From the NCBI GenBank assembly GCA_043821025.1, contig JBDRDF010000006.1, positions 1 through 58,974 of the forward strand: 58,974 nt of DNA, in the 5' to 3' direction. This stretch comes from Candidatus Omnitrophota bacterium (GTDB lineage Bacteria; Omnitrophota; Gorgyraeia; Pluralincolimonadales; CAZUZR01). Of this stretch, positions 1,636 to 27,485 are shown one piece after another; position 1 is the stretch's first letter, and every line of letters starts with the position of its first letter. The notes under the pieces were generated by a model. That model was not told the origin of the DNA, made no database searches, and saw nothing but the letters and a program-made list of their open reading frames with translations. Position numbers and translations under genes: made by a program.

Positions 1636-1678
1636 TCTGTTAACTTATCTTTATTCTTAAGAAACGAATGAAAGTCTT

Positions 1679-3773: not shown

Positions 3774-3790
3774 CTTAATCCTCCTCTCAA

Positions 3791-3835
3791 TAATAAAAAA
3801 GGCATTCGCTTTTTAAAATTTCGCGTCATGCCTTT
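3791..3835 (-). terminator. Rho-independent terminator after pilQ
   Basis: Stem aaaggcat (3798..3805) / atgccttt (3828..3835), followed on the minus strand by UUUAUUAUU. Confidence 0.5.
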
Positions 3836-3852
3836 CTTAATTAAAAACTTCA

Positions 3853-5544: not shown

Positions 5545-5890
5545 TGCTTAAATTTATTGTGACCTCCTCACCAGCCCTGTTGAGGATCGCTCTCTTTCGT
5601 TCTATTTTTATAACTTTATAATCTCCGAACATATCTCCTACCCTTAAAACTACGCCGCTTATTATCGCATAGGATTCACCCTTATCATCCCAAAGTATTC
5701 CTTCTAAATTCAGTTCCACAATATCGCTAACAGGGCGAATTTCGGGAAGTAAATTTCCCTCTTTATCAACTAAAGGGAAAAAGGGGTCTCTCTTGCTATG
5801 GGGGTCGTATTTAAATATCCCTTGTCCAAATGAAAATGAAGCCGCTGAAACAACAAACAAAATGAATAGCGTAACTACTATAAACTTCAC
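5528..5890 (-). CDS. pilP: PilP-like pilus assembly protein
   Basis: 120 aa with a signal/anchor sequence and an RDPF motif. It sits between pilO and pilQ. Confidence 0.6.
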   Translation of the reverse strand: MKFIVVTLFILFVVSAASFSFGQGIFKYDPHSKRDPFFPLVDKEGNLLPEIRPVSDIVELNLEGILWDDKGESYAIISGVVLRVGDMFGDYKVIKIERKRAILNRAGEEVTINLSSEEEE

Positions 5891-6477
5891 TTGCTTAGCG
5901 CCTCCTCTCGCAAGAGATAAATCATAATTAATAATTTCACATCGTGATTATACATATCATTCGTATTAGATTCTACTTTCACATCTGCGAACGACATAAG
6001 ATTTTTTGCATTTTCTATTCTATTTATAAATTCTCCAAGCGCGTGATAGCCGCCTTTTGCCTCAATCTCTATTGGATTCTCCGCATAAATTGTAAGCGGC
6101 GCCTCTACTTCAACCTGTTTGATTTGTTGCTTAACCGGCTCCATCTTTAGGATCTTTACTTTTGATGCACTTGCAAGGCGAGATATATCTTGAAGGATAT
6201 CGGGTAAATCAGAACGAGGTGGCAAAGCCAATTTAATATCCTCTAACTTTGCCTGCAGAGACGCTAACCGATTCTCCATTTGGGACTTCTTTGCAATTAA
6301 AGTTTCGGACTGTTTTAAATTATCTTTGATTTGGGGTATCTCTCGAGACAATTTACTTAACGCTCGAATAGCGGGGCGCATGACGCATTGAATTAAGACG
6401 AGGATTATTAAAGCAGCGACGATTATAAGCGATGCCGCCTTTGCTCTTTCCGCTTTAGGCAAAATCAATGGCATCAA
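5887..6477 (-). CDS. pilO: PilO-like pilus assembly protein
   Basis: 196 aa with a single TM helix followed by coiled coil. It sits between pilN and pilP and overlaps its neighbours. Confidence 0.65.
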   Translation of the reverse strand: MMPLILPKAERAKAASLIIVAALIILVLIQCVMRPAIRALSKLSREIPQIKDNLKQSETLIAKKSQMENRLASLQAKLEDIKLALPPRSDLPDILQDISRLASASKVKILKMEPVKQQIKQVEVEAPLTIYAENPIEIEAKGGYHALGEFINRIENAKNLMSFADVKVESNTNDMYNHDVKLLIMIYLLREEALSK

Positions 6478-7092
6478 TTATAAATTCCTTCCCGCTTTAA
6501 AATGACAAGCTATTATAAAATCTATTACCTCCGTACGCCCTATTTTCCTGCGTTCCACCTTGGTAAGTTCGATCTCATCGAAATCTTCGGAAAACGAGTT
6601 ATTCCCTTTAAGGGAATTTACAAATTTGCCGACGGAGCCAGGCTCTTCCGCGCCCGAAACTATACTTGAACCTTCTAATATTAACAACTGCTTTGGCACC
6701 GCCGATTTAGCGCTGGATTCGGTTCTTTTAACGTATATCCTTCTCAGCCAGATGCCCGAAACTACCGAATCGGATAGGTCATTTAATTTCTTTGCCCAAT
6801 TAAACCTAAAAGAGGATAACCTATTAGCGGCATCGACTTTAGAAGAGAATTCTTTCAGTTTATTTTCCAGCGCTTTTGCCTCAGCGCTTGAAGCTGAGAT
6901 CGAAGTTAATCTTTTATTTAAAGAGTTGAAGGAGGCTTTCTTCGCTTGAGCCATAATTAATAATAGAACTTGAATAAAGATTAAGAATCCGATGATTCCA
7001 GCGACGATTGGCAAGGCTGGCAATTTTGGAAGCTTTAAAGGTTGCCTTTTCTTCTTGCGCAGTTCCTCGGGCAGAAGGTTAATCTCTATCAT
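6478..7092 (-). CDS. pilN: PilN pilus assembly protein
   Basis: N-terminus MIEINLLPEE... followed by a TM helix. It overlaps the pilM stop. Confidence 0.75.
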   Translation of the reverse strand: MIEINLLPEELRKKKRQPLKLPKLPALPIVAGIIGFLIFIQVLLLIMAQAKKASFNSLNKRLTSISASSAEAKALENKLKEFSSKVDAANRLSSFRFNWAKKLNDLSDSVVSGIWLRRIYVKRTESSAKSAVPKQLLILEGSSIVSGAEEPGSVGKFVNSLKGNNSFSEDFDEIELTKVERRKIGRTEVIDFIIACHFKAGRNL

Positions 7093-8018
7093 TGAATTCT
7101 CTGCCTCATCGCAAGTCCTAAGCAGACCGCCAATTGATTAGAGACATCTTTTAGAGATTCCTTGGATATATTTGGAGAAATCGTTAAATTTTTAGTTGGA
7201 TCCCAAACGGAGGATTCTATTCCAAATGCTTGCGATAATCGTTCGGACAATCCTGCTTGTCTGGAACCACCGCCGCTTAAGTAAATGCCGTCTATTCCTT
7301 TTCCAAATTGATTCTCATAATAGTCGAAGGATAAGCGTATCTGTGTGTCTAAATTTTCCAGGTTCTCAGCACCTATAGGGGTATCTCGAACAAAATTTAA
7401 CATCTCATCCTTTAATATGCATACGTTGGTCATGCTTGCGCCAATATTTATTAGCGCAAGGGTTTTCTCCTTTCCCAATCCAGCGTTATTAAAAATAAAG
7501 GCGTTTGTTATCGCAATCGAATCGCAATCGATAGCCTCTACTTCAAGCCCCGCCTCAGTAAGGTATGTCAATCTCTCGTCGATTAATTCCTTTTTGGCAG
7601 CTACTATTAAAACTTTTATCTTATTATCCCCTGTCTTCTCGTCTACAATTTGCGCATCTAGATAGACTTCGTCTATATTAAATGGAATGTGCTTTTCCGC
7701 TTCATATCTTATCGCAGATTTAAGTTCGTCTTCGCTCATCTTCGGAAATAAAACCTGCCGCACAACAACCGACTGACCTGCCACTGATATTACAACTTTT
7801 TTTATGTTAGAAGTGCCCATCGCTTGCTTAATCGCCTGAACAATCTTGTCTCTGGAACGTTCTCCCTCAAAGGGTTGAATTGAAAAGTAATCAAGTTGAT
7901 AGCAACCGGACTTTTGAGCGCTCAGCGCTAGCACCTTCACTGAAGATGTGCCTATATCCAAACCGACTCTGTTCTTCGTTTTGCTTAAGCTTATAAAAGG
8001 AATTTTAATCATATTCAT
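7089..8018 (-). CDS. pilM: PilM actin-like pilus assembly ATPase
   Basis: GLDIGTSSVKV and LINIGASMTNV actin-fold motifs. It is the first gene of pilMNOPQ. Confidence 0.85.
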   Translation of the reverse strand: MNMIKIPFISLSKTKNRVGLDIGTSSVKVLALSAQKSGCYQLDYFSIQPFEGERSRDKIVQAIKQAMGTSNIKKVVISVAGQSVVVRQVLFPKMSEDELKSAIRYEAEKHIPFNIDEVYLDAQIVDEKTGDNKIKVLIVAAKKELIDERLTYLTEAGLEVEAIDCDSIAITNAFIFNNAGLGKEKTLALINIGASMTNVCILKDEMLNFVRDTPIGAENLENLDTQIRLSFDYYENQFGKGIDGIYLSGGGSRQAGLSERLSQAFGIESSVWDPTKNLTISPNISKESLKDVSNQLAVCLGLAMRQRIQ

Positions 8019-8021
8019 CTT

Positions 8022-8165
8022 CTACGGAAGCAAATCTTCTAAACTAGTTGGATAACCATGAGGAATGACATTCGTATAGTAACTCTGACAGGCAGTTGAA
8101 ATGGTGTTGCAGGAAGTTATCTCAACTAAGGCAAGACCATCGTCAGGTAACTTTTTCGTTGCCAT
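8022..8165 (-). pseudogene. Pilin gene relic (47-codon ORF, internally deleted and C-terminally truncated)
   Basis: Hand translation gives MATKKLPDDGLALVEITSCNTISTACQSYYTNVIPHGYPTSLEDLLP*. NTISTACQSYYTNVIPHGYPTSLEDLL aligns with pilin RTISIACESYRAAQTPIAYPTTLAALS at 14/27 identities. GLALVEI resembles GFTLVEI. There is no SD. Confidence 0.45.
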
Positions 8166-8173
8166 CGTGGTTT

Positions 8174-8202
8174 ATTTTATATTTTTCACGCAAAAAAGTC
8201 AA
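8174..8202 (-). promoter_or_regulatory. Putative sigma70-type promoter upstream of pilM
   Basis: Minus strand reads TTGACT (8202..8197), 17 nt, TAAAAT (8179..8174). Confidence 0.4.
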
Positions 8203-8272
8203 GGAAAATTGCCGCTTTTTTCGGAATATGTATAAGGCGGGTGAGGATTTGGAGAAAAACAATTTGCGTCCG

Positions 8273-9247
8273 CTATTCTTTGCGCCAGGAGATTATCTGG
8301 ACTTCGGTGCCAGGGTTTATATTGTTTCTGATAGCGTCCATATACGCCTGATTATATTGGGCTGTGATGCTGCCTCGCAAGTCCACATAGTTGCCTGCCC
8401 AGACGCTTCCGTTAACATTCAGACTGCTCCCGCCGCCGAGATTCTTGAAGTAACCCCTTGTATAAACACACCCGTTAATCGAAGCGTTACCGGTAATTTC
8501 AACGTTTTGGACTATGTTACCGCCGACGATTACAAATCCTCCGACGGATGTAGTTCCGTGCATGATCAAGTCGGTCTCTATATAGACTACATTAGGCACC
8601 CCCTCGGTTGGATTATACCAGAATGAAGTCGGCAAAGGCCTGTCTACCGTCGGATAATAATTATTCTGGCTTATAGCGATCTGCTTTAGATAATCAAAAT
8701 CCAGCAAAGCCAGGGGACTGATACTCGGATCGGGTTTTATGTTTTCGAGCGGGATGTTTCCTTCGCCGCTTATACTACCGGCATAACGTACATCTCCCGT
8801 GACGCTATACGCAGTTCCCGTGAAACTTACGTTTCCCGCGGAATATATGGCATTACTCCAGAAATTATCGTCAAGATCCTTTTTCTGAAGAAACGCCTCT
8901 ATCCTGTAATTTGCGCGGGCGTTGGGCGGCACATCAGGCACAAACCCTTCGCCGACTACTTTCCATTTCTTGCCTGCCTCGATGGTATAGATGGTCAAAG
9001 AATACTTCCCTGTCCCCAGACTAACCCCCGTTTCCGAATCACTGTTTGATGGAAGTTTCGCTATCGCTTTATCTATCGCCGCTTCGGCAAGATAAAAAGC
9101 CTCTGTCGATTCTTTATGTCGTTCTGCCGATCTCGTCTCCCCGATTATCCTCGCCAGCATCGAGACGCTTAATATCACAAGGACGGTTATTACAAGAAAT
9201 GTCACTATAAGTACCGAACCGCGCCTTTTTAATATCCTATCATCCAT
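8273..9247 (-). CDS. PilX-N-type pilus-associated protein with a beta-helix-like C-terminus
   Basis: The N-terminus RRGSVLIVTFLVITVLVILSVSMLA is a PilX_N-like uncleaved hydrophobic segment. The C-terminus is G/N/V-rich and repetitive. It lies downstream of the minor pilins. Confidence 0.6.
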   Translation of the reverse strand: MDDRILKRRGSVLIVTFLVITVLVILSVSMLARIIGETRSAERHKESTEAFYLAEAAIDKAIAKLPSNSDSETGVSLGTGKYSLTIYTIEAGKKWKVVGEGFVPDVPPNARANYRIEAFLQKKDLDDNFWSNAIYSAGNVSFTGTAYSVTGDVRYAGSISGEGNIPLENIKPDPSISPLALLDFDYLKQIAISQNNYYPTVDRPLPTSFWYNPTEGVPNVVYIETDLIMHGTTSVGGFVIVGGNIVQNVEITGNASINGCVYTRGYFKNLGGGSSLNVNGSVWAGNYVDLRGSITAQYNQAYMDAIRNNINPGTEVQIISWRKE

Positions 9248-9260
9248 GGCTCTTCTCCTA

Positions 9261-10091
9261 TTAGTTCCTCGGCCTTGCCGAGGCGTCCAAAGTGATCGAC
9301 AGGTTTCTTCTTCCTTGCGAAAGCGTCGTCTCGCTTTTTGACAGGAACAGTCTTATCTTCAAGACGTTTCCCGATAGTGTGAAATCCGCGCCCCTCTCGA
9401 GGACTCCATTCGCGTTATCCGCAGGCATGTTGTTATTCCCGTCGTTCTCGCTCGCATCCAATACCCCGTTATTGTTGCCGTCTTCCGATGATATGTAATT
9501 AGCCCTCGCGGAGCCGGAATTCCTCGGGATCACCAAAGTGGTCCCGTCGCCGCGCGCGAGGCTTATCAAACCTGCGGTCACGCTCGCAAGAGTAAGCGGA
9601 AAAATATTCGGAGCGCTTCCGTAATAACCGGTCGAGCTTCCGTAATCGACGTATTTCCTGAGCTGATTTATCCCGTCGCTTGTGACATACGGGCAGTATA
9701 TTATCGCGGAACGCCAGCTCGGCTTGTAATCTGAATCGAGATGGACGTAATCGTTATTCGCATGCTGGCCGTCTTCCGAAGCGATACCGGGATTGCCCCT
9801 GGCCGAAGCAAAAATGAGTATCTGGTGGTCCTGATTATTCAGCGGATCGGTAAAAAACGGTATCATGCCGGTAAGCACGTCAACTGTTATGGTCCCGGCG
9901 GCGCTCTCGGTAAGGTCTCTTGTTATTTCCTCTATGGCCGTCTTACCGTTGTCAGTAAGCTGCGCCTGAACGTCAAGGGCCTCAAATGCCGCCCTGGCCT
10001 GGGAATAGAAAAGATATATAAGGCCGCTTAATATCACGAAAATGACCAGCACAATCATCATCTCGACTAGAGTATAGGCTTTTCTATCCAT
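9261..10091 (-). CDS. Minor pilin (prepilin-type N-terminal cleavage/methylation domain), PilW-like
   Basis: MDRKA/YTLVEMMIVLVIFVIL class III signal with E5, 276 aa. It contains an EF-hand-like loop, DGNNNGVLDASE. Confidence 0.75.
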   Translation of the reverse strand: MDRKAYTLVEMMIVLVIFVILSGLIYLFYSQARAAFEALDVQAQLTDNGKTAIEEITRDLTESAAGTITVDVLTGMIPFFTDPLNNQDHQILIFASARGNPGIASEDGQHANNDYVHLDSDYKPSWRSAIIYCPYVTSDGINQLRKYVDYGSSTGYYGSAPNIFPLTLASVTAGLISLARGDGTTLVIPRNSGSARANYISSEDGNNNGVLDASENDGNNNMPADNANGVLERGADFTLSGNVLKIRLFLSKSETTLSQGRRNLSITLDASARPRN

Positions 10092-10094
10092 TTT

Positions 10095-10499
10095 CTATCT
10101 CTGCGTCATCCACGTCGTCACGGTCAGGTTCCTGTTTTTTGTCTTCTCTCGCCAGTTAACGGTAACGAGTATAGGCAGCGGATCGGCGGTCTGGTTAGCG
10201 TAACTTACGATTATCGTCTCATCCGTAAGTTTTTTGGGTCCGATGTTTCCAGAAAGGTCCGTCTCTTGCGGAAAATTATTTATGACATTGTTGTTTGTAA
10301 AGGGTGTTGTGTCCCTTATGTCTTCGAGTATATATCTTGCATCGTTTGAGGCGATTATCCTGTTCCTGCACGATTCCATAAATACGATATAATTGATAAA
10401 AAGCATAAGAAGAGGCATGAGCGCGGCGATTAAGATCGTAGCCGCGATCATGAGTTCGATCAATGAAAATCCGTTCTTGCCCGTCCCTTTTTGTCTCAT
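10095..10499 (-). CDS. Minor pilin (prepilin-type N-terminal domain), PilV-like
   Basis: MRQKGTGKNG/FSLIELMIAATILIA class III signal, 134 aa. Confidence 0.75.
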   Translation of the reverse strand: MRQKGTGKNGFSLIELMIAATILIAALMPLLMLFINYIVFMESCRNRIIASNDARYILEDIRDTTPFTNNNVINNFPQETDLSGNIGPKKLTDETIIVSYANQTADPLPILVTVNWREKTKNRNLTVTTWMTQR

Positions 10500-10650: not shown

Positions 10651-11085
10651 TTACTCGATAGGCGTTCCGCTAGAATTGTTTAACCTAATTACGCCCGCCT
10701 GATTCACAAAGAAAACCCTCGTTCCCGTAACGTTAGGGTCTTGAGGAGTAGCGGTACAAGTATATTGAGAGGTGCTAACCCTCGTATAGGCAAAAGTATA
10801 ACCCTGTTTTGTACCGCCGCCTAATGTGGGATCGATATAGGGTGGCGTTGCGCTACTTAATGCTCCTAAGGTTCCAGGATAATTTGGCGATGCCTGATCG
10901 ACGCTATAACTCTCACACGCAATAGCTATTGTATGTAACGCTGCTATCGCTGCAGTTTCATTGGCATTTAGACGCACACGGCGTAAATTAGGTATCGAAA
11001 TTGCGGCTAATAAAGCTATGATTCCAACGACGATCATAATCTCAATGAGCGAAAAACCTTTTTTTTCGCAAAACCTCATCATCAT
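10651..11085 (-). CDS. pilA: Type IV pilin (major-pilin-like), paralog 3
   Basis: MMMRFCEKKG/FSLIEIMIVVGIIALLAAISIPNL. It shares conserved blocks with the two pilins at 20103 and 20747. Confidence 0.85.
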   Translation of the reverse strand: MMMRFCEKKGFSLIEIMIVVGIIALLAAISIPNLRRVRLNANETAAIAALHTIAIACESYSVDQASPNYPGTLGALSSATPPYIDPTLGGGTKQGYTFAYTRVSTSQYTCTATPQDPNVTGTRVFFVNQAGVIRLNNSSGTPIE

Positions 11086-11238: not shown

Positions 11239-13053
11239 TTAATCTTCTATTAACTCCAAAGCATCTTTTGCGGGCTTGTAATCCTTGGATATCTTCAGAG
11301 CTTTAAGCCAGTGCGCTTTGGCTTTTCGATATTCACCTTTTTTATAATACAAATGTCCAACATCTACGTGCACTCCGGGATACTCGGGATAAAGTCTTAA
11401 ATACTCTTCGTATGCCTTAATTGCTTCATCTATAAGGCCTGCCCTTCTATAACTTAATGCGAGATTATAACGGGCGTCGTCGAAGTAGGGATTCTTCTTT
11501 AATGCAATAAGAGCTGCTTCGATCGAGTCTTTATATTGACCTTTTTTACCATAAACAACAGCTAAACTGTTGTAGGCTGTTGCCCTCTCGGAATACATCT
11601 CTGTCGCTATTTTATATATCTTTATTGCTTCGTCGACTAATCCTTTCTTAAGATAAATATGTCCGAGTAAATCAAGGGCTTCATAATACGAGGGGCATAA
11701 TTTCAGCGCTATCTTGACCTCTTCCATCGCTTCATCTAAAAAATCCATCTTATAATATGCATTGGCTAAATTAAGATGTGCCCGTGGGCTATTAGGGACT
11801 GCCTTGGCTGTGTCGTACCAAAGGGTAAAGTCGTTATTCCACACTCTGTTCCTTTCAAATGTGACTCTTCCCGAAGCTATAATTATAAGGAAAAATACAA
11901 AAAATACCGATGCCTTCCAATTCAAATGAGGCATTCTAATATCTTTTTTCAGTAGCCAAGAAAATAAAAATCCCATCGCAATACAAAAACCTACCGATGG
12001 GATATACATATAACGCTCAGCAAATATGTTTCCCTGCGGGAATATATTACTTACTGGCAAAATGGTAATAAAAAACCAAATTATGGAAAACGACAAGATT
12101 GTATATTTCTTAACATTTTTGATGGCGAGAAACAAAAATAATAACATAATAATTATCCCTAACAACACTGCCGGCTCAAACAAGGAATTTGCTGCCTGAA
12201 AGAGATAATCCGCCTTTAAATTGTAGGGGAAGAATAAAAGCCTTATATAAAAAGTCATGATTTTTATCACCGTAAAGAACCACCAGTGAGGGGTCGTTCC
12301 GGGCAGATAATTTGACGCGTAACGAACATTTTCGACGATAAAAGAGCTGCCTATAACGTAAAAGCGTATGAGCAAATACAATCCCAGAACAACAAAAAAG
12401 CCGATGTGAAAACGCATAAAGTTCCTAATAACGCTTTTTACGTTGCGTTTACTTATGTAAAGAAAATCTAAACAAAGAACGACCAAGGGCAACGTTATAG
12501 CCATTTCCTTAACCAACAACGAGATAAAAAAACAAAGCAACGAAAACAAATAAAAAATCGATTTCGTTGTAAGAGTGTATTTCAAAAATAGAATCAACGA
12601 AAGCAGAAAAAAGGCAAACGCTATAACATCGACCCTACCGCTTACAAAACTGACTGCTTCGGTATGTATAGGGTGCACGCTAAATAGTAAGGCCGAAAAA
12701 AATGAAATAAGCTTATCCTTTGATAACATCTCAGCAAAGAAAAAAATTAAAACACTAACTAATATATGAAAGATTAAATTGGTAAGATGATAACCAAATG
12801 GGTTATTATGCCAAAATGCATAGTCTAACATAAAGGAAGCGGCCAACAACGGGCGATAATATCCGCTGACCATCGTCTGTATGCCGATATTCCAGAAATC
12901 CTGAACAAAAAATTTAGGCAGGAATTTAAAAGATTTCATATAGGGATTGGGGACTACGAAAATATTATCGTCCCAGACAAAATGCGCAAATAAGGTATTA
13001 AAATATGAAGCCAAACAAGCGATAGCAATTAAGATACTTTTGCGAACTTGCAT
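11239..13053 (-). CDS. Polytopic GT-C-type glycosyltransferase with C-terminal TPR repeats (PMT/TMTC-like)
   Basis: 604 aa. FVWDD acidic motif in the first loop, YRPL..., more than 10 TM helices, and a TPR array at the C-terminus. Confidence 0.7.
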   Translation of the reverse strand: MQVRKSILIAIACLASYFNTLFAHFVWDDNIFVVPNPYMKSFKFLPKFFVQDFWNIGIQTMVSGYYRPLLAASFMLDYAFWHNNPFGYHLTNLIFHILVSVLIFFFAEMLSKDKLISFFSALLFSVHPIHTEAVSFVSGRVDVIAFAFFLLSLILFLKYTLTTKSIFYLFSLLCFFISLLVKEMAITLPLVVLCLDFLYISKRNVKSVIRNFMRFHIGFFVVLGLYLLIRFYVIGSSFIVENVRYASNYLPGTTPHWWFFTVIKIMTFYIRLLFFPYNLKADYLFQAANSLFEPAVLLGIIIMLLFLFLAIKNVKKYTILSFSIIWFFITILPVSNIFPQGNIFAERYMYIPSVGFCIAMGFLFSWLLKKDIRMPHLNWKASVFFVFFLIIIASGRVTFERNRVWNNDFTLWYDTAKAVPNSPRAHLNLANAYYKMDFLDEAMEEVKIALKLCPSYYEALDLLGHIYLKKGLVDEAIKIYKIATEMYSERATAYNSLAVVYGKKGQYKDSIEAALIALKKNPYFDDARYNLALSYRRAGLIDEAIKAYEEYLRLYPEYPGVHVDVGHLYYKKGEYRKAKAHWLKALKISKDYKPAKDALELIED

Positions 13054-14291
13054 ATAAGCTCCGAGCCTAATATATATTTGTAAGATTCCATTTTAAATCC
13101 CATATTCTCCATACGCCTGACCAAATCCCCTCTGGTATAATGCGAGATGTGCTCATCGGCATAACCTCCGGGGACTAATTTTTTATACAGCCATTCTATT
13201 ATACGCCAAGAGAGCCTTGAATAATCTGGAGTTCCCAAAATCAGAATTCCGCCTTTCTTTAACACCCTCTTTAACTCCTCAAAAATTGTATCTTTTTGCT
13301 TTAAATGCTCGATTACCTGCGAACAGATTATCTCATCGAAGACGGCGTCTTTAAAAGGAAGGTCTTTTATATCCGCATTTACAAGTGGGTTGCCTAACGA
13401 CAGATTATAGCGTAATTTCTTGAGGTTTATGTCCAGACCGATTGCCTGAGGAAAAGCCCCTAAAATTTTACTTGTGCCGCATCCCGCATCGAGGATACGC
13501 CGTGGATATCCGGCGTAACCGCAAATGATCTTATATCTTTTGCGTTGCCAAAAACGTTGCAAAGGTATTCTACTATAAAATGCACGTTCATCATAATCGG
13601 CTGCTGCTATTGTATTCCTTACCTTCCACAACTTAAAAAATGTGCGCAAGTAGCCAAGTCCAAATCTAATTATTCTCGCATGGGATCTTCCTTTGGACCG
13701 GGGTTGATAATGAAATGGGATTTCTTTAACCTTAAACCCATTCATATAGGCCTTGACCAAAATCTCAATTAAGACATTAAAATCCCTCTCAGAAAAATCA
13801 ATCTCATCAAAAATTTCAGCATTATATAATCTAAAACCGCTCGATATATCCCTTAAAGGCAAAGATAGAGCCGTAGATAAAAACCTATTCAAAATTGTAC
13901 TTAATATTCGACGCGAAATCGGCATATTAGCCAACCCGCCTCTTACATATCGAGAAGCAATAACGATATGGGCAGCGTCTCTGTGGAAGAATAATCTTTT
14001 TATGATGTAAGGGTTATGCGAAAAGTCCGCATCCATGGTAATTATATATTTACCTTTTGCGATTTGGATCGCCTCCCTTAAGGCACCTCCGTAGCCAGGG
14101 TGTTCCTGAATAAAGACCTTTGCCCCCTTGTCTTTGGCAATTTGAAAGGTATTATCCTTTGAGCCGGCATCAACAACGATAATTTCATAATCGTAATTCA
14201 AACCTCTAAATATCTCTTTTATCTTATCGATAAGAATGGCTATATTTGTTGCTTCGTTAAAAGTGGGCAGTATGATAGAGAAGCCCATCAT
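13029..14291 (-). CDS. GT2 polyprenyl-phosphate sugar synthase (Dpm1/GtrB/CsbB-like) fused to a class I SAM methyltransferase
   Basis: The N-terminus carries IILPTFNE..., IIVVDAGSKDNT and DADFSHNP. The C-terminus carries ILDAGCGTSK...VIEHL...GGILILGTP. Confidence 0.75.
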   Translation of the reverse strand: MMGFSIILPTFNEATNIAILIDKIKEIFRGLNYDYEIIVVDAGSKDNTFQIAKDKGAKVFIQEHPGYGGALREAIQIAKGKYIITMDADFSHNPYIIKRLFFHRDAAHIVIASRYVRGGLANMPISRRILSTILNRFLSTALSLPLRDISSGFRLYNAEIFDEIDFSERDFNVLIEILVKAYMNGFKVKEIPFHYQPRSKGRSHARIIRFGLGYLRTFFKLWKVRNTIAAADYDERAFYSRIPLQRFWQRKRYKIICGYAGYPRRILDAGCGTSKILGAFPQAIGLDINLKKLRYNLSLGNPLVNADIKDLPFKDAVFDEIICSQVIEHLKQKDTIFEELKRVLKKGGILILGTPDYSRLSWRIIEWLYKKLVPGGYADEHISHYTRGDLVRRMENMGFKMESYKYILGSELICKFAKVS

Positions 14292-16675
14292 TATTTTATT
14301 CCTCCCTTAAATTTGTTTTTAACAATGCGATTAGCTAAAGTGACCGAACTAAATATTAAGAAAGACAACGTTATAAAAAGACCTATCTTTAGCGATGCAG
14401 GAGAATAGAGGAACTCTACTGTATGAATACCCGCAGGTAAATATACTGCCCTTAATATATAATCGGCCTTCAGGATATGCACCTTCTTCCTATCAACATA
14501 AGCCCTCCAGCCAGGAAAATAGTTATCGCATAAAACTAAAAAGCCATCTGCTCTAACATCCGCTTTGACTACCACCCTGTTTGGTGAGTAAGTAGTAATC
14601 ACCGGTTCTGGTTCAATTATAGTAGTTGAACCCTCTTTATTCAATTTAAAATTCTCCTCTAATATTACCGTATCCTTAAAATCAAAAGCCTCGTCGGAAA
14701 GCGCATTCAGAATGTCATCCCTATTTGAAATGAACTTTGCTTTGTGAACGATAAAAGCTTTGGGCAAAGAAATAGGGGTTTGATATATAGTGACATCGTC
14801 ATCGTAATACACCTTCTCAAAATGAGAAAAATCAGATTTCATATCCCCATTTACCAATATATATTTTAAATTCAATAATGCAAATAAACGCGACGGTCTT
14901 CTAATGGAATCGATTACGAAAGGAATATCTAAAGGACGGCCTTGCGTGAAATTTATAAATTCATTGTATCTCCTTGGGACGCATCCGCTATAACCACCTA
15001 TGCTTGGAATTTTATCCATCATCCCTGCATTTCTAGTTAAAGCGCCCAAGGGCAAATACCGACTTTTGCCTATATTACTTTTTAAAAAGTTTACGGCCTT
15101 ATTATCCAAATGACAATCTTTGATTGTAGAGTATGCAAAATAATTACATCCAAAACTTAAAAGATCGCTAATTATAAATAAAGCGACTAAAAATTTCATC
15201 AAATTCTCTTTAAGTGTTCGTTTGACGTAAAATATAAATAGTAAGATGCCTAATAAAACAAATAGAATTGAGTTATTTAAGCTAAGAATTGCAATTTTTT
15301 TTACAAAATCAGGGCTAAATAAACAACCGAAATTAAACCCTGTTTGAGCGGACAATTTATCGTAAGAGACAATAAAGGAATAAACTCTATTCCAGAACGA
15401 TGGAAAATAACTTAAAATGAGCCTCGCACTAAATAAAATGAGAAATAATATAAACCCAAAGATTATTGTAAAAATCAGTTTCCTATCCGTCTCGTTACTA
15501 ATATAATAGTCCTTAAGATTTCTACAACCTAAAGATGCAAGAACGGAGAGTGAAAAAATTCCAAGGATAAGAAATCTGCCGTTCGCACGAAACATATTAA
15601 AACCTATCATATATCTAAAAAGGTATCTGTAAATTGGAAGATATGCGCCTAGCGATAATATAAACGATAATAACAATAAACCTGTAAAAAACCTACTGTA
15701 CCTACCACCTTTTATAATTGCAAAAAAAGCTAAGAATAAAGGCAATATTCCTACATATAAAGAAACTTCCCAGGGATACCACTTACCCCAATATAGAGCC
15801 TTATTTATCCATCCGAAGAAACCTGGTATCAAAATTGTAACTATGTTTTCGGGCGGCATTGAGAAAGGGTAGCTCCAAACTGGATTATTGTATCTTATCG
15901 ATTCCTTTGTCAGTTCAATTAGCGGAAGCAACTGAATTGACGATAGCCCTATACCTAATATCGTAGAACTTAAAAAAATATAAAAAGGATACAAGGTTTT
16001 CTTTATAGAATGATTATCCTTATAGTTATACAAACTCACATCGGCTACATATAAAAATAAGGCAACAAGGGTTATAAATACAAATTGTATATGGCCGGCA
16101 AAGACCTGCAAGGATAATACAAATCCTGTTAAAATGTTAAAGATATACCCTTCCTTAGATAAGGACTTATCGATAAGAAAAAATAACAGAGGCAACCAAG
16201 CGATTACACATAAGACGGTGAGGTGACCAGAAAAAACTCGAGTTATAAAAGCAGACGATAAAGCAAACACACTTGCGCCGACGAAACAAGAAAAACTGTC
16301 GAGCGTTAACCTCTTAAGATATATATACATAAATATACCTGCCATAACTTGATGTAGAACTATAAGAAAATTTATTGCCAAAGGCAATGGTAAAAACAGG
16401 TGTATAAGATTAAATGGATAAAATATAGCTAATTGAGATTCTGCTAAGAGGGGAACGCCAGAGAATATATAGGGATTCCATAGAGGTATTATCCCTTTTG
16501 ATAATAAACCGAACCCAAAATTCCTGATAATAACGAAGAAATCAATTATGTCTCCACTGGAACTTCCTAATATTAATTCCTTCTTTAAACCAATAAGGAA
16601 CAAATAGGGAAAAATAATTATTAAAGATAAAATAGATATCAAAAAAACTTCGTTAGTAATTCTTGATTTTAACAT
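14291..16675 (-). CDS. YfhO-family polytopic membrane glycosyltransferase
   Basis: 794 aa with many TM helices. The C-terminal YFPGWRAYVDRKKV...GIHTVEFLYSP is typical of YfhO. Its stop overlaps the GT2 start (TAATG). Confidence 0.7.
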   Translation of the reverse strand: MLKSRITNEVFLISILSLIIIFPYLFLIGLKKELILGSSSGDIIDFFVIIRNFGFGLLSKGIIPLWNPYIFSGVPLLAESQLAIFYPFNLIHLFLPLPLAINFLIVLHQVMAGIFMYIYLKRLTLDSFSCFVGASVFALSSAFITRVFSGHLTVLCVIAWLPLLFFLIDKSLSKEGYIFNILTGFVLSLQVFAGHIQFVFITLVALFLYVADVSLYNYKDNHSIKKTLYPFYIFLSSTILGIGLSSIQLLPLIELTKESIRYNNPVWSYPFSMPPENIVTILIPGFFGWINKALYWGKWYPWEVSLYVGILPLFLAFFAIIKGGRYSRFFTGLLLLSFILSLGAYLPIYRYLFRYMIGFNMFRANGRFLILGIFSLSVLASLGCRNLKDYYISNETDRKLIFTIIFGFILFLILFSARLILSYFPSFWNRVYSFIVSYDKLSAQTGFNFGCLFSPDFVKKIAILSLNNSILFVLLGILLFIFYVKRTLKENLMKFLVALFIISDLLSFGCNYFAYSTIKDCHLDNKAVNFLKSNIGKSRYLPLGALTRNAGMMDKIPSIGGYSGCVPRRYNEFINFTQGRPLDIPFVIDSIRRPSRLFALLNLKYILVNGDMKSDFSHFEKVYYDDDVTIYQTPISLPKAFIVHKAKFISNRDDILNALSDEAFDFKDTVILEENFKLNKEGSTTIIEPEPVITTYSPNRVVVKADVRADGFLVLCDNYFPGWRAYVDRKKVHILKADYILRAVYLPAGIHTVEFLYSPASLKIGLFITLSFLIFSSVTLANRIVKNKFKGGIK

Positions 16676-16695
16676 ATTTACTAAATAGGACTATA

Positions 16696-18360
16696 CTATC
16701 TTTGGCCTTCATCCATAAGGCTCTTTATCGCTGCTTTAGCTACATCATAATTAGGATTTATCTCTAACGCTTTCTTCCATAAAGCATTCGCTTTCTCAAA
16801 GTTATTTTCTTGGGCATAGATCACCCCTAAATTATAATAAATTTTCTCCGATTTCGCATTGATTTTCAAGGCATCATCAAAAATCTCCTTCGCTTTAGCA
16901 AATTCTGCACGTTTTACATATAAACAACCCAAATTATTGTAGGTATCTATTAATTTAGGATCTAATTCTATGGCTTTTTTATACTCCTTCTCTGCCTCAT
17001 CCAATAGGCCTTTGCGTGAAAGCATAGTTCCTATATTATGATGCATAATAGGTAAAAGCCAAATTTTGTCCTTATCTTTGTCGATTATCTCTATTACCTT
17101 TTCGTACTTATTTATAGCCGAGTCAAATAGGTCATTGTCGGCGTAATAATTTCCTAAACAGTAATGGGCATTATAACTAAAGGGGGAAAATTTTAAAGTC
17201 CACTTAAAGAAAGTTAAGGTATTCGTCCAATTGAAATTTTGGATTATAGCAAGGGAAGAATAAAATAAAATCCAACTAACTAAAATGACAAAAGCAAACT
17301 TTCTTCTATTCTGCCGTATATTTCCTAATAAGTTCCCTATTATAAGAAATATCCCTATACAAGGCAGATAAAGAAAATGCTCTGCTAAAATCAGAGGAAA
17401 AATAAGGTTCGATTGCGGAAGAAGCATAATAAAAAACCATAACGAACCAAACAGCACTAGCTCTCTTCTACCTCTGTATTTAGTGAAAAGATAAATAAAT
17501 ATGATAAGGATAATTAAAAAAGCTATTACGTAAGGGTCGAAAATGCTTTTCGCAACGTCCATTCTTCTTTCCATATGAAGATTTATTGGCATAATCATAA
17601 TTTTTAAGTATATGATTATGCTCTTTAAAAAAGTAAGGACTCTTGAAAAAAAATCTATTTCAAGGGAGAAAAAATTTTTTCTAAAAAAGAGGGGGCGGCC
17701 AGTAAAATTAAATATGGTGAGCCGTAGGATGATATACAAAATGTCAAAGATTAAAAATAAAGTGTAATATTTCAACTTTGCTCTGACATATCTTTTAAAG
17801 CAAAGGTCGTAAAGGATTAAAACTAGTGGGAAAATTATGGCTTGTTCCCTCGAAAGAAGGCAAAGGATAAAAAAGAGTAATGAGATGATATAGCGCTCTT
17901 TTATATAAAATAGAAAAGCTGAAAGAACGAATAGCCCAAAAAGCAAGTCGGACCTTCCCGAAATATAAGTAACTGCTTCCGTATGAAAAGGGGCACAGAT
18001 GAAGAGAAGCGAACATACTAAAGGTACAAGTAGATTTTTAGTAATATTTTCGAAGATAAAAAATATCAATAAAGCGTTCAAAATATGTATGATTATATTG
18101 GTTAAGTGGTATCCCCATGGCGCAAGCTTATATATAGAATAGTCAAATAGATAGGTTAATGCTTGAAGTGGACGATAATAGTCACTTTTAAAGAGGAGCT
18201 CAGAAGTAAAGATTTTGCCGAGATTATTAAAATTTTTTATTAAAGGATTATTTGAAATTAAATCGACATCGTCCCAAATAAAATCGCCACCGAGAGCATT
18301 GAGATAACATATTAGACCTATTACGACGATTAAAATAATTATGATTTGCCTATTTAACAA
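16696..18360 (-). CDS. Second PMT/TMTC-like GT-C glycosyltransferase with TPR repeats
   Basis: 554 aa with FIWDD and YRPLQ motifs, a polytopic N-terminus and C-terminal TPRs. It is a paralog of 11239..13053. Confidence 0.7.
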   Translation of the reverse strand: MLNRQIIIILIVVIGLICYLNALGGDFIWDDVDLISNNPLIKNFNNLGKIFTSELLFKSDYYRPLQALTYLFDYSIYKLAPWGYHLTNIIIHILNALLIFFIFENITKNLLVPLVCSLLFICAPFHTEAVTYISGRSDLLFGLFVLSAFLFYIKERYIISLLFFILCLLSREQAIIFPLVLILYDLCFKRYVRAKLKYYTLFLIFDILYIILRLTIFNFTGRPLFFRKNFFSLEIDFFSRVLTFLKSIIIYLKIMIMPINLHMERRMDVAKSIFDPYVIAFLIILIIFIYLFTKYRGRRELVLFGSLWFFIMLLPQSNLIFPLILAEHFLYLPCIGIFLIIGNLLGNIRQNRRKFAFVILVSWILFYSSLAIIQNFNWTNTLTFFKWTLKFSPFSYNAHYCLGNYYADNDLFDSAINKYEKVIEIIDKDKDKIWLLPIMHHNIGTMLSRKGLLDEAEKEYKKAIELDPKLIDTYNNLGCLYVKRAEFAKAKEIFDDALKINAKSEKIYYNLGVIYAQENNFEKANALWKKALEINPNYDVAKAAIKSLMDEGQR

Positions 18361-18401
18361 TTAATGCTCCTTAAGAATTTTTTCAGTCCATTTTCTATAA
18401 A

Positions 18402-19913
18402 TCAGATGCGTTTCAGTGTAGTTTCTTTACTTATGATATCTCTAAATAAAAGAATGGTTACAAATAAAAATATAAAAAATATAAAATTAAACTTTATTTT
18501 TGATTCCACTATTTTAAGAGAGGGCTTATAATCAAGATTTAAAAAAACATAAGCGATATCATTTTCATATATCTTCTGCCAGTGTAAATCTTCCTCATTA
18601 AGAATTTCGTCTTTCATAGGAAGTTTTACCCAAATTATTATTTTTGCATATCGATGATAAGGAAGTTTGTTTTCTAGTTTAACTTCTCCAAATAGAGAAT
18701 TGGATGCTGGTCGTTGAGCAAGCGCAGAGAAAATTTGAGAAACAATGTTGACATTAGAGAAAATTATATCCGAAGAATGGGTATTGCTTTTAATAACTTC
18801 CAAAATAGGGTCATAAAATTTGGATATAAAAAGTGGTTTATATTTGTAAAACCCATAAATCTTTCCACTAAGAAAATTATAATATGTAGAGTTGGCTAAA
18901 TTAAACTTCGGACGTCCCTCGGCTAAGTTGAAAGTAGCATGAGAAAAAAATAAAAAGAGAAAAATAATTGCAATAAAAAACTTTGCTTTCTTCTGACCAA
19001 GTACAGAAAAAATTCTTTCAAAAAACAAGGAGGAAAAAAATACAAGCCCGATTATTCCCTGCGCAGCAAAAAATCTATAAGGATACTTTACAAATACCAC
19101 AATACTACCTATAAGATATCCCCAAAAAAGAAGAAAGGGAAAATCTTTTCTTCTAAAATGCAACAATAAAGAGAACAACCCAAAAACAATAATAAAAATG
19201 CTAAAGTTAATAAATTTAGCCTCTCCTAAAACTTCTAAAGCAAGATAGCTTAAGTATCTTATCTGATGATAAAGAATGGGAAAAGCAAGAAACGTACTTA
19301 TAAAGATAATTTTTAAACAAGGTTTTCTATACTCCCTGTTGAACAATGCCAAAAACAAAAATGAGATAATAAATATCCAAGGCACACCCGAATGTGCATA
19401 AAAAGATAGCATTAAAAGCAGAGTAGAACTTATAAATTTCTTCTTTTTTATAAAAAACCAGCTTAACAAACCAAAAATTATGGATATGCTTGCGGGAATG
19501 TTCTCTGACACAGATGAATAAAAAGGGAAAAAACTACTTAAGGTGATAAAATTAATGAACGAAAACCTTTCATTGATAAATTCCCTCGTAACATACCAAA
19601 CAGAAAAGAAAAACAAAGGAGTAATTAAAACCTCCGTAAGCCTTAATGAATTCAGCCCGCTTATTCCTATCTTCTGCAAGAACACTAAGATAAAATGATA
19701 TAGCGGAGGATACAAATGAGGTCTGCCAAAAGGAGCAAAGCCCCACCAGTCCCATCCTACCCACCCTCCAGATTGAATAAAACCATTAGCTACTGATAAA
19801 TGATAATAACCATCCACGAAGTGGGGATAACAATTAAATCTTGCTACCGAAACAATAAAAACAAAAATTATTAAACCTAAACTGGCTAAATCAAAATGGT
19901 TATATCTTCTCAT
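18402..19913 (-). CDS. Polytopic membrane protein, GT-C-like (putative glycosyltransferase)
   Basis: 503 aa with at least 12 TM helices. An acidic/aromatic first-loop motif, FVDGYYH, is reminiscent of STT3/ArnT-type enzymes. Function is inferred from context only. Confidence 0.4.
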   Translation of the reverse strand: MRRYNHFDLASLGLIIFVFIVSVARFNCYPHFVDGYYHLSVANGFIQSGGWVGWDWWGFAPFGRPHLYPPLYHFILVFLQKIGISGLNSLRLTEVLITPLFFFSVWYVTREFINERFSFINFITLSSFFPFYSSVSENIPASISIIFGLLSWFFIKKKKFISSTLLLMLSFYAHSGVPWIFIISFLFLALFNREYRKPCLKIIFISTFLAFPILYHQIRYLSYLALEVLGEAKFINFSIFIIVFGLFSLLLHFRRKDFPFLLFWGYLIGSIVVFVKYPYRFFAAQGIIGLVFFSSLFFERIFSVLGQKKAKFFIAIIFLFLFFSHATFNLAEGRPKFNLANSTYYNFLSGKIYGFYKYKPLFISKFYDPILEVIKSNTHSSDIIFSNVNIVSQIFSALAQRPASNSLFGEVKLENKLPYHRYAKIIIWVKLPMKDEILNEEDLHWQKIYENDIAYVFLNLDYKPSLKIVESKIKFNFIFFIFLFVTILLFRDIISKETTLKRI

Positions 19914-19968: not shown

Positions 19969-20023
19969 GGAGTAAAATTAGAACATCCATCTTCGCTAAA
20001 GTTGGGACAATTTTAATGCAATA

Positions 20024-20070
20024 TATAAAAAGAAAGAGGCGATAACAATTTTAATTTTGCTATCGCCTCT
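20024..20070 (-). terminator. Rho-independent terminator after pilin paralog 2
   Basis: Stem agaggcgata / tatcgcctct (20035..20070), followed on the minus strand by UUUCUUUUUAUAU. Confidence 0.7.
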
Positions 20071-20102
20071 TCTTCAAATTGGGTCTTTACGCCGTACGTC
20101 GC

Positions 20103-20531
20103 TTACGAGATAGGCGAACCCGACGAATTGTTCAACTTGATTACGCCATCCTCACTCACGAAGAAGACCCTCGTACCAGTAAAGCCGGTGGTCTCAGGAG
20201 TAGCAGTGACGCTGAAGGTATTCGCGGTACCAGCGGGTGCGGTAAAAGTATAACCTTGTTTTGTTCCGGTACCTAATGTAGCATCAATATACGGAGGTGT
20301 TGCACCACTTAAGGCTGCTAAGGTGGTGGGATAAGCTATTGGTGTCTGGGCAGCACGATAACTCTCGCACGCAATGCTTATTGTGCGTAATGCTCCTATC
20401 GCAGATACCTCATTAGCATTATGTCTGGCACGCAGTAAGTTGGGTATCGCTATTGTGGCTAATAAAGCTATGATTGCAACTACTATCATAAGCTCAACGA
20501 GCGTAAAACCCTTCCTTCCGCAGAACCTCAT
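20103..20531 (-). CDS. pilA: Type IV pilin, paralog 2
   Basis: MRFCGRKG/FTLVELMIVVAIIALLA, 142 aa, ending ...SSGSPIS. Confidence 0.9.
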   Translation of the reverse strand: MRFCGRKGFTLVELMIVVAIIALLATIAIPNLLRARHNANEVSAIGALRTISIACESYRAAQTPIAYPTTLAALSGATPPYIDATLGTGTKQGYTFTAPAGTANTFSVTATPETTGFTGTRVFFVSEDGVIKLNNSSGSPIS

Positions 20532-20629
20532 CTTATTTCTCCCTTTCTTCCTTCCCTAATTGGGTTTTTAAAGAGCATTGGCTTAAGGCAATAAACCTAT
20601 AATTTCACGCCTTCGGCCTTCTAATAAAA

Positions 20630-20657
20630 AGTATAGCATAAAACCTATCTTTGTTAA
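20630..20657 (-). promoter_or_regulatory. Putative sigma70-type promoter of pilin paralog 2
   Basis: TTAACA (20657..20652), 16 nt with TGc, TATACT (20635..20630). Confidence 0.5.
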
Positions 20658-20667
20658 AGAATTATTA

Positions 20668-20714
20668 TATAAAAAGAAAGAGGCGATAACAATTTTAATT
20701 TTGCTATCGCCTCT
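20668..20714 (-). terminator. Rho-independent terminator after pilin paralog 1
   Basis: The hairpin (20679..20714) is identical to the one at 20035 and is followed by a U-rich tract. Confidence 0.7.
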
Positions 20715-20746
20715 TCTTCAAATTGGGTCTTTACGCCATACGTCGC

Positions 20747-21169
20747 TTACGAGATAGGCGAACCCGCCGAATTTGTCAACTTGATTACGCCATCCTCACT
20801 CACGTAGAAGATCCTCGTACCAGTAACGCCAGTGGACTCAGGAGTAGCAGTGACGCTGAAGATATTCGCGGTACCAGCGGGTGCGGTAAAAATATAACCT
20901 TGTTTTGTTCCGGTACCTAATGTAGCATCAATATACGGAGGTGTTGAGCCACTTAAGGCTCCTAAGGTGGTGGGATAAGCCGCATTTACGGCACGATAAC
21001 TAATGCATGCACTGGCTAATGTGCGTAAAGCTCCTATCGCAGCTGTCTCATTAGCATTATGTCTGGCACGCAGTAAGTTAGGTATCGCTATTGCGGCTAA
21101 TAAAGCTATGATTGCAACTACTATCATAATCTCAACGAGCGTAAAACCCTTCTTTCCGCAGAACCTCAT
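20747..21169 (-). CDS. pilA: Type IV pilin, paralog 1
   Basis: MRFCGKKG/FTLVEIMIVVAIIALLA, 140 aa, ending ...SAGSPIS. Confidence 0.9.
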   Translation of the reverse strand: MRFCGKKGFTLVEIMIVVAIIALLAAIAIPNLLRARHNANETAAIGALRTLASACISYRAVNAAYPTTLGALSGSTPPYIDATLGTGTKQGYIFTAPAGTANIFSVTATPESTGVTGTRIFYVSEDGVIKLTNSAGSPIS

Positions 21170-21265
21170 CTTATTTCTCCCCTCCTTCCTTCCCTAATTG
21201 GGTTTTTAAAGAGCGAAGCTCTGGCGATAAACCTATAATTTCACGCCTTCGGCCTTCTGATAAAA

Positions 21266-21293
21266 AGTATAGCATAAAATTTATTTTTGTCAA
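21266..21293 (-). promoter_or_regulatory. Sigma70-type promoter of pilin paralog 1 (extended -10)
   Basis: TTGACA (21293..21288), 16 nt ending in TGc, TATACT (21271..21266). The leader to the ATG is about 95 nt. Confidence 0.6.
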
Positions 21294-21304
21294 GAAAATT
21301 AACC

Positions 21305-25937: not shown

Positions 25938-25956
25938 TTTGCTTTTTTAAAGTCTC

Positions 25957-26403: not shown

Positions 26404-26410
26404 TTTGTCT

Positions 26411-27472: not shown

Positions 27473-27485
27473 ATTCCCTCCTTAT

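Follow-up and report, generated by a model that had tools for sequence, protein, structure and literature searches.

What would five genes for membrane glycosylation enzymes be doing among the pilin genes of a type IV pilus locus? The question is raised by a 58,974-nucleotide (nt) stretch of DNA from a Candidatus Omnitrophota bacterium (contig JBDRDF010000006.1, positions 1 to 58,974, of assembly GCA_043821025.1; hereafter the window). Here a family 2 glycosyltransferase fused to a methyltransferase (GT2-MT), two GT-C-type membrane proteins with tetratricopeptide repeats (TPRs), named TPR_A and TPR_B, a YfhO-family GT-C enzyme and a fifth membrane protein, X5, are encoded between two tandem pilin genes and a third, divergent one. 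An earlier note, made from the letters of the sequence alone, had proposed that such a cluster O-glycosylates the pilins. Having followed up that proposal computationally, we hold with moderate confidence that the cluster is a pilin-accessory glycosylation cassette, whose best reading is pilin O-glycosylation by way of a polyprenyl-phosphate-linked sugar, because the family of TPR_A is linked to pilins in both Omnitrophota and Proteobacteria and has no member in the control loci. That the pilin itself would be the acceptor follows, by analogy, from this two-phylum gene linkage taken together with the Pseudomonas enzyme TfpW.

The strongest evidence that the TPR_A family would act on pilins is its adjacency to proteobacterial pilA genes. 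We sampled 80 proteobacterial major-pilin loci through the conserved pilin N-terminus and used a TPR_A membrane-domain profile to search their open reading frames (ORFs); 15 of the 80 contain a match (E 1e-16 to 1e-53). The matching ORFs measure 538–718 amino acids (aa; one copy is truncated where its contig ends), many of them carry TPRs, and in 14 of these 15 loci the gene shares the strand of the pilin and is found directly downstream, starting no more than 250 bp from the pilin stop codon. Two tandem copies are present in four of these loci, and in eight a Dpm1-like GT2 adjoins the TPR-bearing GT-C gene. In 110 control loci, collected via the GT2 domain alone and amounting to 1.3 Mb from diverse prokaryotes, the same profile had no match (15/80 versus 0/110; Fisher p = 1e-6), while a second, pilD-centred sample gave four matches, three of them 0.01–0.35 kb from a pilin gene. 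Homologues occur in Pseudomonas, Stutzerimonas and relatives (L135–L214, P0219–P0338), and one Pseudomonas example has thousands of homologues, ~640 aa long and named only "tetratricopeptide repeat protein". A GT-C/TPR gene of roughly this size follows about one in five of the pilA genes sampled from Proteobacteria.

A related picture emerges from the Omnitrophota, for which we collected the loci with full-length GT2-MT orthologues and mapped all proteins of the window onto them. The gene linkage, whose absence from relatives was to count against the earlier note's claim, is present: GT2-MT followed by TPR_A, often with YfhO, stands beside pilin or pilus genes in seven of nine distinct loci. 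In L001, seven pilin paralogues in a row (2835–8984) precede YfhO, GT2-MT and TPR_A. In L007 and L008 a pilin is followed by a TPR_A paralogue in split form and an additional GT2; YfhO, GT2-MT and TPR_A come next, ahead of the minor pilins and the run from PilM to the secretin. L009 and L011 read PilB, PilB, PilC, GT2-MT, TPR_A, and in L049 and L050 the GT2-MT–TPR_A pair comes ahead of pilins. L004 combines a TPR_B orthologue (51%), a pilin, GT2-MT, TPR_A and YfhO, with no pilus machinery in view and with two UDP-sugar dehydrogenases and two epimerases upstream.

YfhO accompanies GT2-MT in six loci (L001, L002, L004, L005, L007 and L012). On the other hand, the pilin-adjacent TPR_B orthologue of L004 is the only one among the related loci, and X5 is found in none of the GT2-MT loci of relatives, so that the five-gene cluster of the earlier note is not conserved as one unit. 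GT2-MT and TPR_A make up the conserved core, often joined by YfhO, and X5 and TPR_B are variable additions.

Enzymes of the cassette and a candidate pathway

The putative donor synthase is GT2-MT. Its GT2 domain (PF00535, 5e-26) has its best match in the Protein Data Bank (PDB) with the Pyrococcus dolichyl-phosphate mannose (Dol-P-Man) synthase (5MLZ, E 3e-26), followed by ArnC and GtrB, and the top NCBIfam matches are AglJ and the Dol-P-hexose transferase models, the archaeal dolichyl-phosphate hexose synthases being closest. The earlier description of a Dpm1/CsbB-like enzyme was thus right as to Dpm1; it had missed the C-terminal half, which is a methyltransferase domain, and the protein has no hydrophobic segment or transmembrane (TM) helix of the kind that CsbB carries. 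Orthologues are 72–81% identical, with the D87-A-D89 (DAD) and LDxGCG motifs invariant, and the end of the gene overlaps the start of TPR_A by 25 nt in the window, L004 and L007. Distant copies, in Latescibacterota and others, lie away from pilins, yet each adjoins a GT-C gene (YfhO, GT87 or PMT_2). This constant pairing is the behavior expected of a donor synthase and fits a GT2-MT that serves whichever GT-C adjoins it, the neighboring GT-C presumably determining the acceptor. A methyltransferase–GT2 fusion of reverse domain order is also encoded in a Magnetococcales pilA locus (L168, 8818–10335), directly after a TPR_A-like GT-C.

TPR_A and TPR_B, which are 30% identical, each consist of a polytopic N-terminal domain of ~400 residues and C-terminal TPRs (TPR_2 at 1e-23), as the earlier note had assigned them. 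The WDD first-loop motifs that it had pointed out are there too, as FVWDD at residues 25–29 of TPR_A and FIWDD at 27–31 of TPR_B, with the DD pair directly after TM1. Alignment of 67 homologues shows D28, D29, R67, G87, H89, P128, E183, P276, Y350 and W405 of TPR_A to be invariant; in TPR_B, the motifs PFHTE and AEHFLYLP stand beside FIWDD. In its public annotation (P0001, 566 aa), TPR_A begins 38 codons too late and so lacks TM1 and the catalytic WDD motif; homologues back the 604-aa ORF that overlaps the GT2-MT stop codon.

The membrane domains of the two proteins have no match in Pfam, even at E 10 and with PMT_2 and TMTC_DUF1736 included, and the TPR_A membrane-domain profile has none among PDB sequences. 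A Foldseek search with the full-length AlphaFold (AF2) model of TPR_A (predicted local distance difference test, pLDDT, 93; helical repeat modelled at 408–603) returned TPR proteins only among its top 50, the TPRs having dominated the search. The TMTC/PMT assignment comes from family members and motifs. Of 16 members of the TPR_A family, two match PMT_2 (3.5e-9) and two TMTC_DUF1736 (0.0023); precomputed PF13231 matches exist for family members, and one source labels some homologues "protein O-mannosyl-transferase". The TPR_A segment LLFSVHPIHTE is nearly identical to LLFAVHPIHT in TM3 of human TMTC3 (PMC7801869). Because of this segment, the DD pair and the family-member matches, "TMTC/PMT-like" seems a fair description of TPR_A and TPR_B. 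By analogy with the topology of TfpW and the TMTC proteins, their TPR domains would be periplasmic.

The YfhO-family assignment of the earlier note is borne out by Pfam (PF09586, E 1e-29; score 104 bits, cut-off 28.5); hydrophobic segments in the protein number ~13 or more, and a long loop precedes the last helix. X5, for its part, belongs to no Pfam family, and it is its AF2 model (pLDDT 93.4) that confirms the "GT-C-like" label given to it earlier: Foldseek matches it to AglB, PglB, STT3, ArnT and AftA at probability 1.0, with TM-scores of 0.48–0.56. The 98 homologues found are all unnamed or "hypothetical", and every organism named among them belongs to the Omnitrophota. D34, H38, R280 and E410 are invariant. 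D34 and H38, checked across 71 homologues, fall just after TM1, and D34 supplies the conserved acidic residue of the first extracytoplasmic loop. That X5 might be a TPR-less paralogue of TPR_A was considered and rejected, profile–profile comparison of the two families giving a probability of 3.5%; since there is no profile-level relation to the TPR_A family, we regard X5 as a separate GT-C family. Three Omnitrophota genomes (L129, L130 and L133, Velamenicoccus archaeovorus among them) have an X5-family gene (at 10001 or 2404) that shares an overlap with the truA end, in the conserved order fab genes, leuCD, leuB, asd, truA, X5.

Every one of these domain assignments fits the enzyme logic proposed in the earlier note, in which a cytoplasmic polyprenyl-phosphate GT2 feeds periplasm-facing GT-C enzymes. 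A candidate pathway may be written as follows. The cassette would have been inserted in the variable region of the operon, between pilC with the major pilins and the minor pilins with pilMNOPQ. At the cytoplasmic face, the Dpm1-like domain of GT2-MT would, by homology, take a hexose-type sugar from a nucleotide sugar and attach it to polyprenyl phosphate. Methylation of this sugar or of its precursor is the probable task of the fused methyltransferase, as suggested by the fusion alone. A flippase encoded outside the cluster would then turn the lipid-linked sugar to the periplasmic face. There, TPR_A and TPR_B would use the first-loop DD motif to transfer the sugar to Ser or Thr residues of the membrane-anchored pilins before assembly, with the periplasmic TPR domains recognizing the pilin, as their architecture, the pilin adjacency in two phyla and the TfpW and TMTC precedents suggest. 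In the weakest step of the scheme, YfhO and X5 would most likely supply further sugars, either on the glycan or elsewhere on the pilin.

The pilus locus and its pilins

The coordinates that the earlier note gave for the five ORFs and the three prepilin genes are exact, and all of these ORFs are on the minus strand (Table 1), which carries every gene from ~3.8 kb to 29 kb; together these genes make up one type IV pilus locus. Its order is radical-SAM (S-adenosylmethionine) protein, GGDEF/GAF/HAMP protein, PilT-like ATPase, small MshEN-domain protein, two PilB-type ATPases, PilC, pilin 2, pilin 1, the five cluster genes, pilin 3, three minor-pilin-like genes, PilM, a PilN-like protein, PilO, a small ORF and the secretin, with RNase G further on. 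Gaps between the five genes are at most ~40 bp, and no further ORF of at least 80 aa lies between them. L007 has a PilX-like homologue in the position equivalent to that of the minor-pilin-like genes. The nearest named relatives of the window are Candidatus Omnitrophota genomes, and many groundwater metagenomes contain near-identical DNA.

Table 1. Features of the glycosylation cluster and of the neighboring pilin genes (positions in the window)
Feature	Position	Strand	Basis
Promoter-like site upstream of pilin 2	21266..21293	-	TTGACA-16-TATACT, 11/12 matches, extended TG; top scan score
Pilin 2, 140 aa; expressed major-pilin candidate, putative acceptor	20747..21169	-	N_methyl prepilin motif
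Rho-independent terminator after pilin 2	20677..20716	-	16-bp stem and T-run
Pilin 1, 142 aa; tandem duplicate of pilin 2	20103..20531	-	N_methyl motif
Identical terminator copy between pilin 1 and the glycosyltransferase genes	20033..20072	-	16-bp stem
X5, 503 aa; GT-C-fold membrane protein, Omnitrophota-specific, variable cluster member	18402..19913	-	AF2/Foldseek
TPR_B, 554 aa; TMTC/PMT-like GT-C membrane domain and C-terminal TPR	16696..18360	-	Motifs, TPRs
YfhO-family GT-C, 794 aa	14291..16675	-	Pfam PF09586
GT2-MT, 420 aa; Dol-P-Man-synthase-like GT2 and class I SAM methyltransferase	13029..14291	-	Domain matches
TPR_A, 604 aa; TMTC/PMT-like GT-C and TPR, putative pilin O-glycosyltransferase	11239..13053	-	Motifs, TPRs, context
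Pilin 3, 144 aa; divergent paralogue directly after TPR_A	10651..11085	-	N_methyl motif
Three minor-pilin-like genes (134, 276 and 324 aa)	8273..10499	-	Prepilin-type N-termini

Pilins 1 and 2 are 83% identical as proteins and arose by a tandem DNA duplication of ~620 bp (window 19990–21300; 91.5% identity) that included the 40-nt terminator hairpin; pilin 3 is 62–63% identical to both. Contigs from groundwater metatranscriptomes cover pilin 2 from 21258 to 20714, at depths up to ~40. They stop at 20714/20715, in the terminator, and at 21258, a few bases downstream of the promoter-like site, and because the ends match these two elements, we conclude that expression of pilin 2 yields a short transcript. 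These contigs leave pilin 1 uncovered and give weak coverage of pilin 3 and one minor pilin. The enzyme genes sit behind a terminator, which is the layout of pilin-accessory cassettes; those of Pseudomonas consist of the pilin, a terminator and the accessory genes (PMC11841053). Ser and Thr make up 20–22% of pilins 1 and 2 (20% of pilin 2). As a glycosylation site one might, by guesswork, name the stretch T-P-P-Y-I-D after the N-terminal helix, which is widely common to pilins.

The GC content of the cluster is 30–39%, as against ~42% in its surroundings. At third codon positions (GC3) the values are 0.27 for X5, 0.31 for YfhO, 0.33 for TPR_B and 0.40 for GT2-MT and TPR_A; operon and neighboring genes have 0.39–0.47, and the minor pilins, at 0.51–0.61, lie above the rest of the operon. 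A recent horizontal island was considered and set aside: the GC3 of X5, TPR_B and YfhO supports their being foreign or of separate origin, whereas that of GT2-MT and TPR_A resembles the operon's. Because GC3 is heterogeneous and TPR_B and X5 occur variably, the stretch from pilC to pilM looks like a mosaic, variable region, which suggests mosaic acquisition.

Three further observations concern this and the related loci. The genes upstream of the pilins (24231–28919) encode two full PilB-type ATPases that include MshEN domains, a separate 148-aa MshEN-domain protein that stands alone, a PilT-like ATPase and a HAMP-GAF-GGDEF protein, a gene set shared with L131 that hints at control of the pilus by cyclic di-GMP. 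RelB/ParE and HEPN/nucleotidyltransferase toxin–antitoxin pairs flank the glycosylation genes of L007 (2162–2622 and 12282–12976), as would fit a recombination-prone variable region. In L004, a UDP-glucose/GDP-mannose dehydrogenase gene (1460–4204) contains an intein with a LAGLIDADG endonuclease domain, and an intein-free paralogue lies directly upstream of it.

Pilins or other acceptors

Several findings weigh against pilin O-glycosylation. The cluster contains no flippase gene of the GtrA, MATE or Wzx type. The metatranscriptome contigs cover none of the five enzyme genes, although such contigs cannot show absence. In two short or partial orthologous loci, L051 and L052, no pilin is present in the available DNA. 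A specific target suggested in the earlier note has also been lost: it had likened the C-terminal Ser of pilins 1 and 2 to the glycosylated residue of P. aeruginosa 1244 pilin (Ser148). Pilins 1 and 2 do end in ...SPIS, but pilin 3 ends in E and the cluster-linked pilins of related loci end in Cys-loop tails (e.g., ...C..W..Q), and the C-terminal-Ser hypothesis was dropped once those pilins had been aligned. Added to these are the size of the TPR-bearing GT-C family, the weak match of TPR_B to a family for cell surface glycopolymer formation (E 1.5e-11), the known action of YfhO enzymes on teichoic acids, and the surroundings in which most relatives of X5 are found, all of which are best taken up with the explanations that draw on them.

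One such explanation divides the cluster. The GT2-MT–TPR_A pair, perhaps with TPR_B, would act on pilins, while YfhO and X5 would modify some other envelope molecule, be it a lipid, a glycopolymer or periplasmic proteins; a variable region accumulates acquired genes, and the donor could be shared. X5 relatives at 25–58% identity mostly follow truA with overlapping starts, in housekeeping neighborhoods of fatty-acid, leucine and asd genes, a context that suggests a general envelope role. A Latescibacterota contig pairs YfhO with GT2-MT and has no pilin, neither YfhO nor X5 occurs in any of 160 sampled proteobacterial pilus loci, and the GC3 of X5, YfhO and TPR_B, differing from that of GT2-MT, TPR_A and the operon, suggests separate histories. 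Yet five or six of the pilin-linked loci in Omnitrophota have YfhO together with GT2-MT and TPR_A, and protein glycosylation by YfhO-family enzymes is known. X5, too, has a pilin linkage of its own: one relative of 58% identity lies alone in another Omnitrophota pilus operon whose gene order matches that of the window, with two short pilin genes on one side of it and pilM on the other. We consider such a division of labor unlikely, if worth keeping in mind.

It is also conceivable that the position of the whole cluster is incidental and that it serves general protein O-glycosylation or an envelope glycan, lipopolysaccharide or another polymer. PMT-type enzymes are, after all, general protein O-mannosyltransferases, and the TPR-bearing GT-C family is very large in Omnitrophota and other phyla (966 matches among the scored candidates) and lies mostly away from pilins; because of this size, most of its members cannot be pilin-specific. 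The glycopolymer-family match of TPR_B and the teichoic acid substrates of YfhO enzymes point the same way, as does the resemblance of the low-GC cluster to an inserted island. This reading would leave unexplained why the family is pilin-adjacent in two distant phyla, directly after the pilin in 14 of 15 proteobacterial cases and with no match among the controls, why a pilin is nested among the glycosylation genes of L004, away from pilus machinery, and why the layout of pilin, terminator and accessory genes is present; we judge it improbable. Finally, the TPR proteins might be non-catalytic biogenesis factors, akin to the TPR assembly proteins PilF/PilW with an added membrane anchor. Their TPR domains do match the PilW and Tgl TPR models (E 1e-15 to 1e-17), but far below the curated cut-offs, and the matches are generic. 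A membrane domain of ~400 residues is conserved, invariant DD, HPxHTE and ERYxYxPS motifs are typical of GT-C catalysis, and TPR_A is translationally coupled to the putative donor synthase, all of which makes a non-catalytic role very improbable.

To our knowledge, only two types of pilin glycosylation enzyme have been studied in depth: TfpW, and TfpO/PglL with its en bloc transfer of a glycan. If pilin O-glycosylation by the cassette is correct, a TMTC-like GT-C with a Dpm1-like GT2 would make a third route, widespread in Proteobacteria and uncultured Omnitrophota. The human TMTC O-mannosyltransferases would then have bacterial relatives whose acceptor is defined and which, since culturable Pseudomonas and Stutzerimonas carry the module, offer a tractable model, and the Omnitrophota-only family X5 would have its first functional lead. 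A more sweeping proposition is that TMTC-like GT-C/TPR proteins with Dpm1-like synthases constitute an unrecognized, phylum-spanning class of dedicated pilin O-glycosyltransferases, and that in Omnitrophota this class has expanded, so that four GT-C enzymes of three families, X5 being new, would assemble a methylated oligosaccharide on pilins in the periplasm, step by step and from one lipid-linked donor; this we offer only tentatively, as a possibility about which we are more doubtful than hopeful.

Pilin glycosylation alters the surface chemistry of the pilus, and in Pseudomonas it blocks pilus-specific phages (PMC11841053). A survey paper describes Omnitrophota as ultra-small, possibly host-dependent cells and lists pili among their symbiosis-related traits; glycosylation is not mentioned in it. 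In these organisms, the presence of a variable glycosylation cassette beside multiplied pilin genes suggests that the pilus surface is under diversifying selection.

Comparison with known systems

The earlier note did not recognize a pilin glycosylation system built from TMTC-like and YfhO enzymes as a described one. As to its elements, this claim of novelty has to be narrowed: TfpW is already a GT-C with TPRs encoded after pilA, and because streptococcal YfhO-family enzymes with a GT2 already glycosylate proteins, YfhO acting on protein is not new in itself. The combination is undescribed in the literature that we found: searches gave nothing on pilin glycosylation with YfhO or on Omnitrophota type IV pili together with a glycosyltransferase, and none of the papers found brings these elements together on pilins or reports them from Omnitrophota. 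The enzyme of P. aeruginosa 1244, TfpO, we take to be of a class different from the GT-C proteins of this cluster. It has been described as unrelated to TfpW (PMC11841053).

TfpW of P. aeruginosa/paraeruginosa group IV, a GT-C of 646 aa encoded directly after pilA, has a periplasmic TPR domain and a DDX motif; this motif is required for pilin arabinosylation, several Ser and Thr residues are modified, and the donor is a lipid-phosphate monosaccharide (bioRxiv 10.1101/2020.04.19.049825). TPR_A and TPR_B resemble it as polytopic GT-C proteins of ~600–650 aa with DD(X) in the first periplasmic loop and a C-terminal TPR domain, encoded beside the major pilin in a cassette of pilin, terminator and accessory genes. 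The likeness is one of architecture and context. The TfpW motif YX6PFX7P is found in neither TPR_A nor TPR_B, nor in 19 proteobacterial and 120 Pseudomonas-type homologues, where only Y269-X6-P276 is conserved. Unlike TfpW, moreover, the window proteins come with a Dpm1-like GT2 and methyltransferase as donor gene, rather than with the D-arabinofuranose pathway (DprE/phosphoribosyl pyrophosphate), and as two TPR-bearing GT-C paralogues with two further GT-C families, in the phylum Omnitrophota.

In streptococci, YfhO-family GT-C enzymes and a polyprenyl-phosphate GT2 glycosylate Ser/Thr-rich extracytoplasmic protein regions (bioRxiv 10.1101/2024.05.05.592596). These systems, Pgf (PgfS/PgfM1/PgfM2) and GtrB/PgtC2, share with the window cluster a GT2 with YfhO-family GT-Cs, two GT-C enzymes per pathway, and GT2-MT and YfhO weakly match the PgfS and PgfM2 models, at NCBIfam scores far below the equivalog cut-offs. 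They differ in being Gram-positive, in targeting adhesins and membrane-protein tails rather than pilins, and in having neither a TMTC-like enzyme nor a methyltransferase fusion. CsbB/YfhO and GtrABC-type systems likewise follow the logic of synthase, flippase and GT-C; they modify teichoic acids or O-antigen, whereas the window cluster has no flippase gene, and GT2-MT, unlike GtrB and CsbB, is without C-terminal TM helices.

With the eukaryotic TMTC1-4/PMT and Dpm1 enzymes, the cluster has in common the DD pair after TM1, LLF.VHPIHTE in TM3, the C-terminal TPR domain and a Dpm1-type donor synthase, although the window proteins are bacterial and fall below the Pfam thresholds for PMT_2 and TMTC_DUF1736. 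Finally, the uncharacterized pairs of TPR protein and GT2 that adjoin pilA in Pseudomonas, Stutzerimonas, Alcanivorax and Allohahella have no YfhO and no X5, and their GT2, unlike GT2-MT, usually lacks a methyltransferase. They are nonetheless homologous to TPR_A in the membrane domain, occupy the same position after the pilin gene, and often occur as tandem paralogues, often followed by a Dpm1-like GT2.

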